Shown here: piece by piece, positions 55,766 to 63,543 of the stretch
How positions within the stretch are numbered: the stretch's first letter is position 1
Layout: the number at the start of each line of letters is the position of its first letter
Position numbers and translations under genes: made by a program
The notes under the pieces: model-generated
Databases searched by the model: none
The model's input: only the letters and a program-made list of their open reading frames with translations
Told to the model about the DNA's origin: nothing
From: Porphyridium purpureum
Lineage: Eukaryota
Assembly: GCA_008690995.1 (NCBI GenBank)
Contig: VRMN01000001.1
Location: forward strand, 620,001-684,000
Direction: 5' to 3'
Length of the DNA stretch: 64,000 bases

Positions 55766-56733
55766 CGTCGTACAATCCGCCACACCCACTCTTCCGTTCC
55801 CTTCTCTTCAACCCGTTTACTTTCTCTCCCGTTCTCTTGTTTCCCCCTCTAGCACAACTCCACTCACTTTCCGCACCATCAACTCCGGTTCCATCTTTAC
55901 TTTTTTTTTGAACCGTTTTGGAGCACTGTACACTACACCAAACGCCGTTCCGTGTACTGTACCCTACTCGTTTTGTGGATGAAATCAGTGGGCTAGCGGC
56001 AATTCGCCAGAATCATTTCATACGCGCGGTGGCGTTTTTCAAAACAACGCACGCCCATATGAAAAAAACGCACGTTTCTATATGAGGCGATATTGGGGAC
56101 AACACTTCTGTTTTCACTGTACCTCTGGTTTGACTTTGGTGGTGGTGTGTGACGAACACGCAAGCCGGGCTGTGACGCACGTCGCATGTGGTGTGGCCGC
56201 GAGTGTGGGACACGCAAGCGGTCGGAGAGGCAGAGGCAGAGGCATGGACAGTGGCGTGGACGTTGGGTTCCTGCAGCTGCGGCTCAACTGGCGTGCATCA
56301 TGCTCGGCTGGATCAACGAGGTGACGCGATTTCGTGACACGAAGATCTCGTGCCGCGGGTGGTTCCGCGCGCATTCGTGGTCAACCGAGCCGTCGCTGAG
56401 CATTTCGCATCACACGCCTGGACAGAAGCGGGTAGCAGCAAAGCAGCAGCAGAAACCGAGAACGCCGACAACAAGGCATTTTCCAGGAACGGCTGGGACT
56501 AGATGGAAAAACTGGAAGGTCGAGAAAGGATGGATAGAGCGAGAGAGAGAGAGAGACTGTATAAAGTTGCTCAACGACAGCGGCGTCGACAAGCAGGCAA
56601 GCAAGCGGCTGCGGCTCGTGCCGGGCGAGTTGCGGCTCAGGTCACAGCCCGAATGATGGCGCATTGAAAAGGCCGAAATCGCGTCTTTAAAATGTGTTCT
56701 TGAATACAAGGCGTTGCGCCAAGAGAACCAGGG

Positions 56734-57538
56734 CATGGATTAAAAGTGTTCCGGTCCGAGAGACGCCCTGGGTGTACACCTAGAGGTACGGCGTCTCGGA
56801 ATTCTTTGAGGTACAGGGGCTTTTTCGCCCGCGTGGTTTTTTACCCTGTACCTCTGGTTTGTGCATTGTTGTCTTTCGCCCCGAGGAGCCGAAGTCGCGT
56901 GTCCGAGGGAAGCAGGAGCCGCTTGGCGGCCGGCCAGCACCCATTGAGCCGCTTGCTGACGTGGCTGGCTGTGGCTTCGTTCGTGGAACGAACGGAGGAA
57001 AGCCCAGCCTTTGGGAGAAATAATTTCTCCCTTCCGCGTCAAGGACAGCAAGGACGGCGGGGTATATAATGGGCGCGGGCCCGTGCGGTTCCCCGGATTT
57101 CTAGAGAGAAGAAGAAGAAGAGGCAAGGGAGTACGACACAGAGAATAAAGGAAGAGTTGTTCTTTGGTGTCGGGTGCCTGGGCGTGGTCGTCGGAAGGCG
57201 TGGGGCCTTTTGCTGAGCCTGTGTAGCAGAGCCAGCAGCACATCGTGTCTGGGGGGTTTCGGTGCTCTTGGAGCACTGAAGGCAGACGGCGGCTTTGTCC
57301 GTTACGACACCCTGCCCCTGTCGAGACCGGTGCTGTCTGTGCCGACGCGAAAGGCAATAGTAGAGGCCCTATACGTTGGATTTTCCACGCCCCGGGTATT
57401 CGTCGTCTGTGTTGTGTGCGTCGTGTGGTTGTGTTCTCTGTGCTGTGTGCGTCGTGTTGCTGGGGTTCGGTCATCTGAGAAGGGTTGTGTCATCCGGGTT
57501 CGTGCGCTTGTCATCATCAAGCGTGCGAGAATTTAAAG
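56734..57538 (+). repeat. 5' LTR (805 bp)
   Basis: Direct repeat of 61924-62729; TATATAA near 57063. Confidence 0.95.
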
Positions 57539-57550
57539 TGGTATCATCGC
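57539..57550 (+). other. Primer-binding site (tRNA-iMet-like)
   Basis: TGGTATCA(TCGC) directly after the 5' LTR. The canonical iMet PBS is TGGTATCAGAGC. Confidence 0.8.
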
Positions 57551-57560
57551 ATCGGCGAAG

Positions 57561-58517
57561 ATGGATTCTGAGGGAATGGACGTGCAGGGCCTGCAGGGCG
57601 GCGCGTCGTGGATTGAAGCTTTCAACCAGCTTCATGCTCGTATCGGAGGACAAGAAATGATGATTGTGCAGCTGCAGGAGGGAAATCGCCTCTTGCAGGA
57701 GATGCTGCAGAATGTGATGCATCAGGCATCTGTGTCAGCTGGTCCCGGCGAAACGGAAAGGACCGTTGCATCGCTGATTGGACGCAGCTTGAGGAAATAC
57801 GACGGACAGCGCGACAAACTCGTTGTGAACGAGTGGTTGTCGAGGATGAAGCAAGACTTGGACATGTGCATGCCAGCTGGAGCGCTGGAGTCTCAGAAGG
57901 TGATCGTAGCGTCGCGCTTCTTTGAGAAGGATGCCGCGCTGTTGTGGGCAGCTCGCCCTGAGGAACAGAGGATGGCACTGGCCGAGTCCGGTTGGAATGC
58001 GTTCGCGAACTTCGTGCGGACGGCATTTGAGCCGCCGCAGGCATACCTGACTGCTCGAACGAACTTGTATCAGCTGAAGCAGGGCAAGATGACTGTTGCT
58101 GAGTTTGAGCAGCGCCTGAGGATGGTGGCCCTGTCAGTGGATAGTGTGACGGATGCCGAGCTCAACACCATCTTCACTCTCGGCCTGAAGGAGAAGCTTC
58201 GCCTTGAGGTGGCGCGTCAGGACACGAAGACGCTGGAAGAGTCGCTGAGGGCGGCGTTGGCTGCGGAGCAGGTTGGTAGGTTTGGAGGAGACATGAGGGA
58301 GGCTTTTCATGGCGCCTCTAGTCCAAACTACCGGAACAGCTCGTCGTATGCCGGGACGGCGCCAATGGATTTGGGCGTCGTGGAGAAACGCCAGCCGGAG
58401 AAGCGCAAGCATGCGGACATGGGCAAAGTCAGATGCTACCATTGCGGGCAGCGCGGCCACATCAAACCCAATTGCCCAAAGCGGAATGGGCACTTGGCGG
58501 GAGGCCCGGGAAACTAA
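57561..58517 (+). CDS. gag: Gag (retrotransposon capsid plus CCHC zinc knuckle)
   Basis: LKQGKMTVAEFEQR, APMDLG, CYHCGQRGHIKPNC. Confidence 0.92.
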   Translation: MDSEGMDVQGLQGGASWIEAFNQLHARIGGQEMMIVQLQEGNRLLQEMLQNVMHQASVSAGPGETERTVASLIGRSLRKYDGQRDKLVVNEWLSRMKQDLDMCMPAGALESQKVIVASRFFEKDAALLWAARPEEQRMALAESGWNAFANFVRTAFEPPQAYLTARTNLYQLKQGKMTVAEFEQRLRMVALSVDSVTDAELNTIFTLGLKEKLRLEVARQDTKTLEESLRAALAAEQVGRFGGDMREAFHGASSPNYRNSSSYAGTAPMDLGVVEKRQPEKRKHADMGKVRCYHCGQRGHIKPNCPKRNGHLAGGPGN

Positions 58518-58569
58518 AACCTCGAGGGAGAAGTTGGGAGGTGCACTCGAGGGGAACGGAACCTCCCGG
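58508..58569 (+). other. -1 programmed ribosomal frameshift signal (slippery heptamer plus H-type pseudoknot)
   Basis: G GGA AAC lies just before the gag TAA. Stem 1 is CCTCGAG/CTCGAGG and stem 2 is GGGAGGT/ACCTCCC. Confidence 0.85.
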
Positions 58570-61500
58570 GATGGGCTTTGTAGGTGAGGTCTGGCGCGCT
58601 GATGCGGCGTCGAGGTTGCTCTACAAGCGTGGAACTTTAGATGGCGAGTCTGTCCAATTTCTGGTGGACAGCGGAGCATCGCACAATTTTCTTGGATCTC
58701 GCTTTGTCGGCAGATTTGAAGGGCCCGAGAACGGAATGGTCAAGCTTGCGGGTGGGCAAAGTGTCTCAGTGCATGGCCCGGTGTTGAAGCATGTTGATCT
58801 TGGGTTCTGGAAAGGGCCGGTCAAGTTTTATGTCGGGCCTCTGCAAATGGATTCAATTCTCGGGTGGGACTGGCTGAGTCGCGTGAACCCGAGGATTGAT
58901 TGGCAGAGGGGTTCGATGGACTTGGAACTTGAAAATGTGGAAGATTGTGCGATGGTAAATGTCGTGGACGCTCTTTCCGAGTCAAGCGGAAATCAAGCGT
59001 ACGATGGAGAAGAGGAGAGTGCCAGTGAAGAGGTCGAAGGAAAGATGGCCGGGATGGAACATGCGTTGACTCACATGCCGATGCGGGATGATTGTGAGAC
59101 GTGTGTTGTGGCCAAGATCAAGAGCCGACCAGCAAGAAGGCTGGAGAAGGACTTGTCCACTTTGTCGTTCAATGACGAAGTTGGGATCGACCTGGTGGAG
59201 CCCGGACGTAACGTGGAAGCCATCGATGGAGCGAAGTACATACTGACGCACATCGATAGAGCGACGAGGTGGGCCACACTGGCAGGATTGAGAGCCAAAA
59301 CGCATACGGCGGTTGCTGAAGCTTGGACAAGCGTGCAAGCCGGGCGAGGATGGCCAAAGGTACTGAGGACAGATGATGGAAACGAGTTCAGGGGAAATGT
59401 GAGCAATTTGGTACGGGAGAATCTCGTGAAGCATGAGATTGGGGTCCCACATAGACCGAATAGCCACGCTGAACAGGAACGTTTCCATCATACTTTGAAT
59501 CAGGGGGTACGAGCAAATCTCCTGCAGTCTGGGCTGGGAAAGCGGTGGTTTTTGCATGCCGCTCAGCATTTCGTCTTCATGTTCAATCGGCTGCACCCAG
59601 ACAAGAGGTCTGGGAAGTCTCCGTATGAAATGAGGTACGGTGAGAGATGGAAGCGGGGGAAGGTAGCAGTACCATTTGGGTGCAAGGTGGTTTTCAAGAA
59701 TGATCAACCTGAGAACAAGTATGCACCCAGAGGAAAGATTGGAGTCCTTGTTGGAGTTGCGGAGCATCCGCTGGCAATCTGGGTCCTTCCTCAGGAGGAG
59801 TGGACGAGTGCGGCACCGAGGCTGACTCGCACTCAGGACTTCAAGGCGTTCCCTGAAGTGTTTCCAATGCGGACTTTGGAAACAAGGGATGACGAGGAGG
59901 TCTCGGCACGTGAGGGTGAAATCGACTTTCACTCTAGGCAGGAAGAACCGGATAGTCAAGAGACTATGGTGTTGCCTACGAATACGGCCGAGGCGCGTGT
60001 GTCCGGGAACTTGGAGGAGGACGTTCCCCTACCTATTGGAAGAAGGGGGAAACGAAAACCCAGTGTAGCTTGGAGCCGGGAAGAGGATCAGGCCATCATG
60101 GATGGCTTACGGCTCTTTGGCTGGGGGAAGTGGGAAAGAACTCTGCAAGAATACAAGGCAGTGTTTCGCAATTCAAGAAACGGAAAGGATGTGCGAGCCC
60201 GGGCCCATAATATGGGCCTCTCGGAGGAAAATTGGAAGCAACGCACAGGAGTTGCTCCAGAAACACCGCAATTGAACTTGACAACTTTGTTGCAGACGAG
60301 CCAAGCTCTAGCTTCTTCGGCTGGAAGAGAAGCCATGCAAAAAGAAGTGGACTTGATGATCCGATTCAAGGTATGGGATGAGCAACCTATTTCAAGGGAA
60401 GAAGCTCTCAAGGTCCCAGGCGCACGATTTGTGCGGACACACTTTATATTCGGATTGAAGTTCGCTGAGCTTCCGGAGGAGTTTCGCAAGGTCAAGTGTC
60501 GGCTTGTTGCTGGTGGAAATAGGATTTGGGATGCCTCAGGGAAGGTCACTCAGGATGTGTTTGACTATGAGGTGCCCGCGGGCCTGTCTGCAATCAGAAT
60601 GCTGATAGCTTTGGCCGCGATCCTGGGATTGAAAATCGTGTCGTTCGATGTGACGTCGGCGTACTTACACGCTGACTTGTCAGGACCACCGACGTTTGCC
60701 ATGTTGCCCCGTCACGTTCCAGGAGGAGGTGATGGACTTGTCGTTCGCTTAAGGAGGGCGCTTTATGGCTTACCAAGAAGCGGGTCTGACTTTTCCATCG
60801 ATGCCCGCAGAAGACTTCAAAAGTTCGGGTGGGATTTGATTCACGGCGAGAAGAACGTATACGTGAAAAAGATGGCGGGAAGTGCATCTGTTGCACTCTT
60901 GGCCTTGTATGTCGACGATGACCTGCTCGCGTGTGCCGAGAAGGATCGGGGTGAGATATTTCGAGAGTTGAGGTCAGAGTTCCTCATTGAGAAGGAGCCA
61001 GAAGTCCTCTCGGAAGGAGCCCCGTTAAGGTTCCTAGGTCTCATGATCTCGGAGTCGGCGACACGGTTTTCGTTGGATCATGATCACTACCAAACCTTGG
61101 TGGTGAAGGAATTTGAAGAAGAGCTTGGGCAGGTGCTGCGAGCAGTGAAGTCACCAGGCGAGAAGATGAATGCTGACGCTGTATTGGATGTTCAAGTCGA
61201 ACATGGGCATCTGAAAATACGCGAGCATGTTGGGAGGCTGCTGTGGTTGGCCAGGACGGTCAGACCGGATATCTCCTACGCAGTTGGAGTGGTGGCTCGG
61301 TATGTGGATAGCTGGAACGTCGCAGCTGAGAGACTCCTGGTTCGCGTCATGCAATACTTGAAGGTTCCTCGTGAGCCACTTGAGTATTTGCGGATGACGT
61401 CATTGAAGGTCGGTGACGTAAGCGTCTTGGGCTATGCTGATGCCGACTTTGCTGGATGCCCGGAAACGCGCAAGTCAACGTCTGGAAGAGTGACGTACTT

Positions 61501-61933
61501 GGTCGCGGGTGGAAACAAGTATCTGGTCGATTGGAGCTCCAGAAGGCAACGCTTTGTTAGCTCTTCGACCTCTGAGTCTGAGATGGCCGCTCTGGAAGAA
61601 ACGGTGCAGTTATCTTTGTTTCCGGCATTGTCGTTTCTTCGAAGCGTGCAGGAGGGGGATTATGCGTTGACCCTGCTTTGTGATAGTCAAGTTGTTCTCC
61701 GTGCGGTCGAGATGGGATATTCGCCAAAGTTGCATCACATGGCAGTAACCAGAGCCACGGACTTGGCGTGGATACACCAAATTTGCGAGAAGCAGAAGTT
61801 GGTGACATTGGAGTATGTGAGGACGGGAGAAAACGTGTCCGACTTGATGACAAAGCCTTTGTTTCCGGAAGGTCACATCAGGTGTTGGAACATGTTACGC
61901 GTCCCTCAGATCGGAAGGAGGAGCATGGATTAA
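58514..61933 (+). CDS. pol: Pol polyprotein PR-IN-Myb-RT-RNaseH, in the -1 frame relative to gag
   Basis: LVDSGAS; HALTH...CETC; IDL/TDDGNEF/QER DDE triad; FDVTSAYL, LYGLPRSG, YVDD; YADADFAG..ETRKSTSG. Confidence 0.95.
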   Translation, partial: LKPRGRSWEVHSRGTEPPGMGFVGEVWRADAASRLLYKRGTLDGESVQFLVDSGASHNFLGSRFVGRFEGPENGMVKLAGGQSVSVHGPVLKHVDLGFWKGPVKFYVGPLQMDSILGWDWLSRVNPRIDWQRGSMDLELENVEDCAMVNVVDALSESSGNQAYDGEEESASEEVEGKMAGMEHALTHMPMRDDCETCVVAKIKSRPARRLEKDLSTLSFNDEVGIDLVEPGRNVEAIDGAKYILTHIDRATRWATLAGLRAKTHTAVAEAWTSVQAGRGWPKVLRTDDGNEFRGNVSNLVRENLVKHEIGVPHRPNSHAEQERFHHTLNQGVRANLLQSGLGKRWFLHAAQHFVFMFNRLHPDKRSGKSPYEMRYGERWKRGKVAVPFGCKVVFKNDQPENKYAPRGKIGVLVGVAEHPLAIWVLPQEEWTSAAPRLTRTQDFKAFPEVFPMRTLETRDDEEVSAREGEIDFHSRQEEPDSQETMVLPTNTAEARVSGNLEEDVPLPIGRRGKRKPSVAWSREEDQAIMDGLRLFGWGKWERTLQEYKAVFRNSRNGKDVRARAHNMGLSEENWKQRTGVAPETPQLNLTTLLQTSQALASSAGREAMQKEVDLMIRFKVWDEQPISREEALKVPGARFVRTHFIFGLKFAELPEEFRKVKCRLVAGGNRIWDASGKVTQDVFDYEVPAGLSAIRMLIALAAILGLKIVSFDVTSAYLHADLSGPPTFAMLPRHVPGGGDGLVVRLRRALYGLPRSGSDFSIDARRRLQKFGWDLIHGEKNVYVKKMAGSASVALLALYVDDDLLACAEKDRGEIFRELRSEFLIEKEPEVLSEGAPLRFLGLMISESATRFSLDHDHYQTLVVKEFEEELGQVLRAVKSPGEKMNADAVLDVQVEHGHLKIREHVGRLLWLARTVRPDISYAVGVVARYVDSWNVAAERLLVRVMQYLKVPREPLEYLRMTSLKVGDVSVLGYADADFAGCPETRKSTSGRVTYLVAGGNKYLVDWSSRRQRFVSSSTSESEMAALEETVQLSLFPALSFLRSVQEGDYALTLLCDSQVVLRAVEMGYSPKLHHMAVTRATDLAWIHQICEKQKLVTLEYVRTGENVSDLMTKPLFPEGHIRCWNMLRVPQIGRRSMD
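61913..61923 (+). other. Polypurine tract
   Basis: GGAAGGAGGAG immediately before the 3' LTR. Confidence 0.8.
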
Positions 61934-62729
61934 AAGTGTTCCGGTCCGAGAGACGCCCTGGGTGTACACCTAGAGGTACGGCGTCTCGGAATTCTTTGAG
62001 GTACAGGGGCTTTTTCGCCCGCGTGGTTTTTTACCCTGTACCTCTGGTTTGTGCATTGTTGTCTTTCGCCCCGAGGAGCCGAAGTCGCGTGTCCGAGGGA
62101 AGCAGGAGCCGCTTGGCGGCCGGCCAGCACCCATTGAGCCGCTTGCTGACGTGGCTGGCTGTGGCTTCGTTCTGTGGAACGAACGGAGGAAAGCCCAGCC
62201 TTTGGGAGAAATAATTTCTCCCTTCCGCGTCAAGGACAGCAAGGACGGCGGGGTATATAATGGGCGCGGGCCCGTGCGGTTCCCCGGATTTCTAGAGAGA
62301 AGAAGAAGAAGAGGCAAGGGAGTACGACACAGAGAATAAAGGAAGAGTTGTTCTTTGGTGTCGGGTGCCTGGGCGTGGTCGTCGGAAGGCGTGGGGCCTT
62401 TTGCTGAGCCTGTGTAGCAGAGCCAGCAGCACATCGTGTCTGGGGGGTTTCGGTGCTCTTGGAGCACTGAAGGCAGACGGCGGCTTTGTCCGTTACGACA
62501 CCCTGCCCCTGTCGAGACCGGTGCTGTCTGTGCCGACGCGAAGGGCAATAGTAGAGGCCCTATACGTTGGATTTTCCACGCCCCGGGTATTCGTCGTCTG
62601 TGTTGTGTGCGTCGTGTGGTTGTGTTCTCTGTGCTGTGTGCGTCGTGTTGCTGGGGTTCGGTCATCTGAGAAGGGTTGTGTCATCCGGGTTCGTGCGCTT
62701 GTCATCATCAAGCGTGCGAGAATTTAAAG
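61924..62729 (+). repeat. 3' LTR (806 bp)
   Basis: By eye it differs from the 5' LTR only by a 1-nt indel and one A/G substitution. Confidence 0.95.
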
Positions 62730-62877
62730 CAGGGTTTAAACTGTACCTCCACTGTTGGGTGTTCTGTATTTTCACCAGCAGGGCAACGCGGCTGAGAAGT
62801 TGGCGATGGATGGAGGGATAGGGCAGGGGAAGAAGGGCGAGAAGGGTGAGTGTTGTGAATCGTTGGTCGGAGTCAAG

Positions 62878-63543
62878 ATGAGCGCGGAGCTCATGGAGCT
62901 GGCCAGCATGGACTGGACAAACACAGAGCACATGATGGGAACGACGATCATGGCGACGGCGTTCGACGGCGGTGTGGTGATGGGTGCGGACTCCCGGACA
63001 ACAACTGGCTCGTACATTGCGAATCGCGTCAGCGATAAAATCACCCCGATCACAGACAAGGTGTGGTGCTGCCGTTCCGGATCAGCAGCCGATACCCAGG
63101 CGATCTCGGATTACGTGCGGCTCTACACCGCCCAGCACGCCATCGAGCTGGGCCAGGAGCCGCGCGTCAAGACGGTGGCAAATTTATTCAGAGAAATCTG
63201 CTACTCAAATAAGGCGAATCTGATGGCCGGGATCATCTGCGCCGGCTGGGACCAGTTCAGCGGCGGCCAGGTCTACAACATTACGCTCGGGGGTAGCTGC
63301 GTGCAGCAGCCATTCTCGATTGGCGGCTCTGGTTCGACCTACATCTACGGGTACTGCGACTCGAACTTTCGCGAGAATATGACGCGCGACGAGTGCGTCG
63401 AGTTTGTTAAGCACGCTCTCGCGCTCGCTATGGCGCGCGATGGCTCAAGCGGCGGTGTGATCCGCATGGTGATCATTGACTCGTCCGGTGTGCAAAAAGT
63501 GTTTATTCCAGGAGACAAGCTCCCGATGGCATGGCAGGGATAA
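62878..63543 (+). CDS. PSMB6: 20S proteasome subunit beta1 (PSMB6/PRE3)
   Basis: G|TTIMA propeptide cleavage site, [46 protein letters not shown]. Confidence 0.96.

Follow-up and report, generated by a model that had tools for sequence, protein, structure and literature searches.

A Myb-family domain at the putative C-terminal end of the integrase of a Porphyridium purpureum LTR retrotransposon and its possible role in target-site choice

Introduction

Most LTR retrotransposons known to be targeted depend on borrowed host proteins or on the reading of histone marks to choose where they insert. Integration by Tf1, Ty5, and Ty1 is position-specific and tethered, and through short motifs these elements and Ty3 engage host proteins that act as tethers, such as TFIIIB, which recruits the Ty3 integrase, and Sap1, which does so for Tf1. 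To our knowledge, none of these four elements carries a Myb domain of its own. Ty3 inserts at specific positions beside promoter elements (bioRxiv 10.1101/2021.07.27.453949), and this is the likeness that it shares with the element proposed here to be targeted. The diatom Ty1/copia element CoDi-A and the Ty3/gypsy chromoviruses are similar to the present element in another way, in that a host-type module is found at the C-terminus of the integrase, and a part in directing integration has been either proposed or demonstrated for it (PMC2774666, PMC12477314), and the putative chromodomain at the copia integrase C-terminus of CoDi-A is a precedent for a captured host domain (PMC2774666). In these elements, however, the module is a chromodomain that reads histone marks, while the element described here has a Myb domain and favors sites with a DNA word at a set distance, and no chromo family is present among the Pfam matches of its Pol up to an E value of 1.

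Two further systems bear on what a Myb domain might do in a retroelement. The non-LTR element R2 also has its own Myb-like motif, which is described as helping to recognize sequence near the insertion (PMC12203849), but R2 inserts at a single rDNA site by target-primed reverse transcription with an RLE endonuclease and its Myb is N-terminal, whereas the present element has a DDE integrase, a C-terminal Myb, and many dispersed sites. That one Myb is able to direct a retroelement enzyme is shown by an engineered fusion of the TRF1 Myb to the TRAS1 endonuclease (PMC2868851). The closest solved relatives by sequence are the single Myb repeats of TRF1, TRF2, and Tbf1, from which the element differs in that the telobox residues K-D-x-x-R are not kept, there is no TRFH dimerization domain, and the Myb is embedded in the Pol polyprotein. 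Red algal copia elements have been described before, namely the GalEa-like CoPorcru1/2 of Porphyridium cruentum, which is of the same genus, and PyRE10G of Porphyra (PMC3587641). Compared by description rather than by sequence, they differ from the present element in its Ty3-type gag and protease. The word 'myb' does not occur in the available text of that report or of PMC2806351, and no Myb in an LTR integrase was found in the openly accessible literature that was searched.

Results

Structure and Age of the Element

The window is a 64-kb stretch of P. purpureum DNA, and it contains an intact copia-order LTR retrotransposon at positions 56734-62729 on the plus strand. The 5′ LTR (805 bp, 56734-57538) and the 3′ LTR (806 bp, 61924-62729) are identical except for a single substitution and a 1-bp indel, and the element is flanked by a 5-bp target-site duplication, CAGGG (56729-56733 and 62730-62734). 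A contig of run X1 contains the empty site, joining 56728 to 62730 such that the five letters fit both sides, and the empty insertion site is also present in contigs of run X3. Because the LTRs are nearly identical and empty-site contigs exist in X1 and X3, this copy inserted recently and the insertion is polymorphic between strains. It lies between two genes and upstream of both, at a distance of 72 bp from the first ATG of a proteasome subunit gene and of 964 bp from a kinase gene on the opposite strand.

Several features place the element with Ty1/copia, including the PR-IN-RT-RH order, an RVT_2-type reverse transcriptase (RT), LTRs, a primer-binding site (PBS), a polypurine tract (PPT), and the 5-bp target duplication. 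The LTR termini are CA...AG rather than TG...CA. The empty site fixes them, as does another X1 insertion (duplication TGCAC) that likewise has CA...AG ends, and other copies have their junctions at these same bases. In a survey of non-canonical LTR termini in plants the first T is reported as invariant (bioRxiv 10.1101/137141), so the CA...AG ends fall outside the surveyed types and motif-based LTR finders would likely miss this element family. The putative PBS, TGGTATCA (57539-57546), lies directly 3′ of the LTR and presumably matches initiator tRNA-Met, and the PPT is at 61913-61923. The LTR starts immediately after the PPT and stops immediately before the PBS, which suggests that the element ends are unprocessed.

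The coding region has a mixed character. The gag gene (57561-58517) is of the Ty3/gypsy type, with Pfam matches to Retrotrans_gag (E 1e-10) and Ty3_capsid (E 2e-8) and a CCHC knuckle (E 8e-5), and the copia-type families Retrotran_gag_2 and Pol_BBD are absent, their place being taken by Retrotrans_gag, Ty3_capsid, and gag-asp_protease. The pol ORF (58322-61933, 1203 codons) is in the −1 frame relative to gag. A G GGA AAC heptamer followed by one or more stems (58508-58567) is predicted to be a −1 frameshift signal; one stem (58520-58526/58546-58552) is in the minimum free energy fold, and complementary arms at 58536-58542/58561-58567 could form a second and thus a possible pseudoknot, although the region folds no better than shuffled sequence (z only −0.76). 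The heptamer position 58510 differs in other copies. The Ty3/PEG10-type gag, protease, and predicted frameshift (57561-58900) are thus fused to a copia-type IN-RT-RNase H, and relatives in the same RT clade have a copia-type gag instead of the Ty3-type. The N-terminal part of Pol (58574-60049) contains a gypsy-type aspartyl protease (DSGAS), a short-spaced HHCC motif, the integrase core (D204, D268, and the E303 region, numbered on the 1119-residue translation), an SH3_retrovirus domain, and an acidic linker. After the Myb domain come the RT (RVT_2, YVDD) and RNase H in copia order (60260-61933), open until a stop within the 3′ LTR, so that the Pfam order in Pol is PR, rve, SH3_retrovirus, Myb, RVT_2, and then RNase H. 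The RT motif near 60919-60921 reads YVDDD in the window copy and YVDDG in other copies.

Contigs of the RNA-labeled run X19 span the internal region, although this is no proof that it is transcribed. Each LTR contains the word CTGTACC twice in opposite orientations (in the 5′ LTR at 56810-56816, minus, and 56846-56852, plus). Contigs of X1 and X19 exit the LTR at 56826 and 62016 (LTR position 93), at a distance of 11 bases from the minus-strand CTGTACC, and continue into one and the same unrelated sequence; another element may be nested there. A 15-mer, CTGTACCTCTGGTTT, occurs in upstream intergenic DNA (56117-56131) and again within the LTR (56846-56860).

The Myb Domain

The preliminary description of this locus had proposed that a TRF-like Myb follows the integrase, and the 55 residues that it quoted are an exact translation of 60050-60214 on the plus strand, in frame within the pol ORF. 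A search with a 64-residue stretch matches PF00249 (Myb_DNA-binding) with 28.7 bits (E 1.4e-6) against a cutoff of 24.4, bearing out the assignment to the Myb/SANT class, and the same profile gives 28.3 bits in a separate scan of family representatives and 22.4 bits, under the cutoff, on the whole 1203-residue ORF. Among PDB sequences searched by phmmer, Myb chains of TRF1 take the first four places (E 6e-4 to 1e-3). In the ESM Atlas the top match (0.91) is a Myb cluster, and the ten best matches that bear a family are in the same family or clan. AlphaFold models of the domain are of low confidence (mean pLDDT 48 and 60), and with them Foldseek returned no match at E ≤ 0.001, its weak hits including a SANT domain and the TRF2 Myb, while the best VIA matches were mostly homeodomain-like (Z up to 3.4). 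With low-confidence models and indecisive fold searches, the three-helix fold therefore rests on sequence profiles, and by these the segment at 60050-60214, which has a basic N-terminal arm and a single repeat, is a Myb-family domain.

The K-D-x-x-R residues of telobox helix 3 are the base-contacting positions in TRF1. The best single-stretch PDB match of the family profile is 8ynu/6k5u (33 bits), labeled telomeric DNA-binding factor trf1, which we take to be fission-yeast Tbf1. Its R-N-Q-V-Q-L-K-D-K-A-R-N-M aligns with R-N-G-K-D-V-R-A-R-A-H-N-M of the element, and in both the third Trp is replaced by Ala. The alignment confirms the earlier reading that the telobox helix has diverged to V-R-A-R-A-H-N. 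The helix-3 signature L-K-D-K/R-W/A-R is not kept, V-R-A-R-A-H lying in register with L-K-D-K-A-R of 8ynu; the K-D-x-x-R positions are occupied by R-A-x-x-H and are different again in the other Myb families. Judged by the sequence of helix 3, the domain falls outside the telobox class, and a TRF/Tbf1-like ancestry is plausible. In TRF-class domains helix 3 is described as entering the major groove (PMC8402208). The core of the window Myb has a net charge of +3 in addition to its basic arm, and two of the other Myb families are acidic in the core (net −4).

A conserved hydrophobic-Thr motif is found just before the RT, about 20 residues downstream of the Myb, and is likely to be the IN/RT boundary, from which we infer that the Myb is on the integrase. 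The proposed placement in the C-terminal slot of the integrase thus stands, between SH3 and RT in a copia-order Pol, given this putative boundary.

Distribution of the Myb Domain Among Element Families

The element family is a P. purpureum cluster of 17 proteins, at least 15 of which are listed as named records, and one of these, P0014, is identical to the window Pol over all 1119 residues. The Myb is whole in 12 of the 15 annotated pol-bearing copies, with three variable sites in 55, and is broken in its first half in the other three (P0011/P0018, P0012, P0186), possibly by frameshifts or as an artifact of the gene models. Among 40 of 156 variant entries there are 29 coding variants (20 synonymous, 9 not, and 0 within the Myb), a tally that carries no information on the Myb itself.

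In a search of 1.84 billion proteins, the Myb is present in eight of the best 150 representatives, which are the window family and seven others (P0019, P0021, P0024, P0030, P0032, P0038, P0057) with the Myb in the same slot. All eight are from P. purpureum; the source species was determined for 20 of the 150, and 15 of these 20 are P. purpureum. Seven of the eight family representatives match PF00249 on their own at E ≤ 0.1, and leave-one-out profiles recover the Myb families with 20-54 bits, while other representatives reach at most 8.1 bits; P0024 is recovered only marginally (9.4 bits). The Myb core of the window family is 29-48% identical to those of the seven others, compared with mostly 32-37% for RT-RNase H where full-length members could be aligned, and among all families the pairwise core identity is 18-69% with the Trp/helix pattern kept. 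The linker to the left of the Myb aligns between families at or near the level of shuffled sequence. Neutral decay of the segment in related elements, which the preliminary description had named as a refutation of its proposal, is therefore not what is seen, since the Myb core is conserved in seven other families while the linkers are unalignable. Its presence in relatives is mixed in that these seven families keep the Myb but the closest sister family is without it. A search for Myb-bearing elements outside P. purpureum and for a host donor gave nine matches among 7993 candidates, all P. purpureum elements, and this is weak evidence of absence. A search with the RT region gave four matches among 7992 candidates, a metagenome scan gave three short loci in which no Myb was seen and too little sequence precedes the RT for a verdict, and none of 28 candidates in viral contigs was confirmed.

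The slot between integrase and RT has other occupants. In the sister family P0017/P0187 (71% identical, a cluster of 16), which has spread without a Myb, a coiled-coil-like segment is located exactly where the Myb sits. Of the 150 representatives, 23 have a Cys/His module of the form C-x2-C...C-x2-C...H...C...C-x-C in this slot, and its carriers include P0020, P0022, P0024-P0029, P0031, and P0036. It has no Pfam match in the 30 proteins scanned and matches only unnamed ESM Atlas clusters (≤0.83). P0024 carries both modules, P0030 has the first half of the Cys module and then a Myb, and the Cys/His module is likely the older occupant. By these sequences, the slot is swappable between Myb, coiled coil, and Cys/His module. 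The Myb families are not one clade on a tree of RT-RNase H (21 rows; AU p 8e-39; at least four changes in an unrooted count), which was computed as a careful run under LG+G4 without a mixture model; a 50-row tree was a quick one from which P0044 and P0057 were dropped as too short. The Myb is also found behind both Ty3-type and copia-type gag-protease regions, P0174 and P0176 being Myb-bearing proteins with copia-type gag and protease. This patchy distribution reflects either an early gain with several losses or transfer of the module by recombination. In the sister family, the IN-RT-RNase H block is repeated two or three times in tandem within the gene models of P0167 and P0017, which may point to tandem arrays or to artifacts of assembly, and P0033, a distant copia-type Pol, has an AAA_28 NTPase domain after RNase H.

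Target-Site Bias

Among 24 of 196 loose contig ends, five lie at the right end of the LTR and represent four distinct flanks, which together with that of the window give five right flanks (n = 5, one from this insertion and four from others), where +1 is the first flank base. They were selected by read support, some are perhaps solo LTRs, and one is from a metatranscriptome. The word CTG(T/G)A occurs at +12 to +16 in four of the five (CTGTA three times, CTGGA once), and the fifth has CTG at +11. In 200,000 simulated draws of five random 30-mers, with any word and offset allowed, three identical 5-mers at one offset were obtained in 73 draws from the whole window and 88 from intergenic DNA, and the same plus a fourth within one mismatch in only 5 and 2, respectively. 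Neither of the left flanks seen (n = 2) has the word at the mirrored position, so that the bias looks one-sided. At the window insertion the candidate targeting word is CTGTACC (62741-62747, plus strand), at +12 from the LTR end and upstream of the proteasome subunit gene (62806-63543).

CTGTACC is observed 21 times in the window versus 3.2 expected, with four of the 21 within the LTRs. By ORF-based gene calls its density is 0.94/kb between genes versus 0.07/kb in genes, about 13-fold, and when the 7-mers of the intergenic DNA of the window are ranked with microsatellites set aside, both ACTGTAC and CTGTACC come out among the highest. The shorter CTGTAC has a density of 2.3/kb in divergent gaps versus 0.6/kb in convergent gaps. 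Whatever the gene direction, the intergenic words of this one 64-kb window are strand-biased (12 plus versus 2 minus for CTGTACC, p 0.013; 19 versus 5 for CTGTAC, p 0.007), and CTGTACC could be a polar chromosomal motif. The flanks are best read as oriented targeting at a fixed distance from a promoter-type motif, which it would likely be the Myb that recognizes. Of the earlier proposal of an integration-targeting module, the targeting part thus gains from the bias in four of five flanks, but the word is CTG(T/G)A and the flanks are not telomeric.

Discussion

The reading that we favor, to which we give somewhat less than an even chance, is that the conserved Myb at the presumed end of the integrase binds a CTGTAC-type intergenic word, leading to oriented insertion about one helical turn away. 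Cleavage at the conserved boundary that follows the Myb would leave the domain attached to the mature integrase, and the Myb would fold as a three-helix domain, bind DNA, and be the part that reads the word; once bound it would hold the complex about one turn from the site of strand transfer and in one orientation. In a genome dense with genes, landing beside a promoter-type word would spare coding sequence from insertions. This agrees with the PF00249 and TRF1 matches, the conservation in seven other families, the basic core, the word at +12 in four of five flanks, and the enrichment of CTGTACC between genes, and Myb domains are described as reading target DNA in R2 elements (PMC12203849). 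Against it, there are only five sites, including possible solo LTRs and the one offset at +11, the sister family P0017/P0187 has multiplied although it lacks a Myb, and the domain is broken in three of the 15 annotated copies. The helix-3 positions expected from TRF1 to read bases also vary among families, and the two acidic cores would suit a SANT-like role in protein binding. A single Myb is reported to bind DNA only weakly unless dimerized (PMC4839565), and here the integrase multimer could supply the dimerization.

A host tether is the strongest rival; it accounts for the observations almost as well, and we hold it only somewhat less probable. A factor bound at CTGTAC(C) would recruit the integrase, as TFIIIB and Sap1 do for Ty3 and Tf1, and the Myb would be a SANT-like adaptor, a non-specific DNA clamp, or uninvolved in the choice of site. 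CTGTACC is indeed an abundant host intergenic word, CTGTAC is densest in divergent gaps, and the presence of CTGTACC in the LTR is what would be expected of the site of a host promoter factor; the variable helix 3, with two acidic families, and the ability of a coiled coil or Cys/His module to replace the Myb fit as well. The Myb of the window family is basic, however, and keeps the helix 3 register of the Tbf1/TRF class.

It is improbable that the Myb is instead directed at the element itself, binding the two CTGTACC words near the left end of its own LTR for assembly of the complex on CA...AG ends or for control of transcription, with the flank bias as a side effect. The paired words of opposite orientation in each LTR and the non-canonical termini accord with this, but on its own it leaves the fixed +12 offset in genomic flanks unexplained. 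There is likewise little probability that the Myb is a captured fragment spread among families by recombination with no role in transposition. Such a passenger would account for Myb families that do not form one clade, for a sister family that manages without the domain, and for the finding of all Myb-bearing representatives in one species. Recent passive spread is expected to give nearly identical domains, and the observed identity of 18-69%, with the Trp/helix pattern kept while linkers diverged beyond alignment, therefore counts against it.

Telomere or telobox targeting, suggested by the likeness to TRF1, by best PDB matches of the TRF1 and Tbf1 class, and by GGGTTT within the first eight bases of two of the five right flanks, is very improbable, and a telobox specificity is not borne out, because the helix signature is altered (R-A-x-x-H for K-D-x-x-R), the bias word is CTG(T/G)A, none of the five flanks is a tandem repeat or telomeric array, the window copy lies between two genes, and AAACCCT occurs 7 times in the window versus 4.6 expected. 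The telomere repeat of P. purpureum is left unresolved in the available text of PMC3622300, and Tbf1 is described as acting at promoters and subtelomeres rather than at telomeres (PMC4839565, PMC7952879).

Put more broadly, and more tentatively than the Myb-reader mechanism itself, the element may represent a DDE integrase with its own sequence-specific Myb reader that inserts in one orientation 11 bp from a 6-bp promoter word, the reader occupying a plug-in slot swapped among the families of one genome, each maybe with an address of its own. If true, such an integrase, steered by a DNA-reading domain that it carries itself, would be nature's equivalent of engineered fusions of integrases to DNA-binding domains. 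P. purpureum has sister families with and without the Myb in one public assembly, which makes the role of the integrase C-terminal module directly testable, and a young, strain-polymorphic element of this kind may be of use in this alga for tagging genes or providing landing sites.
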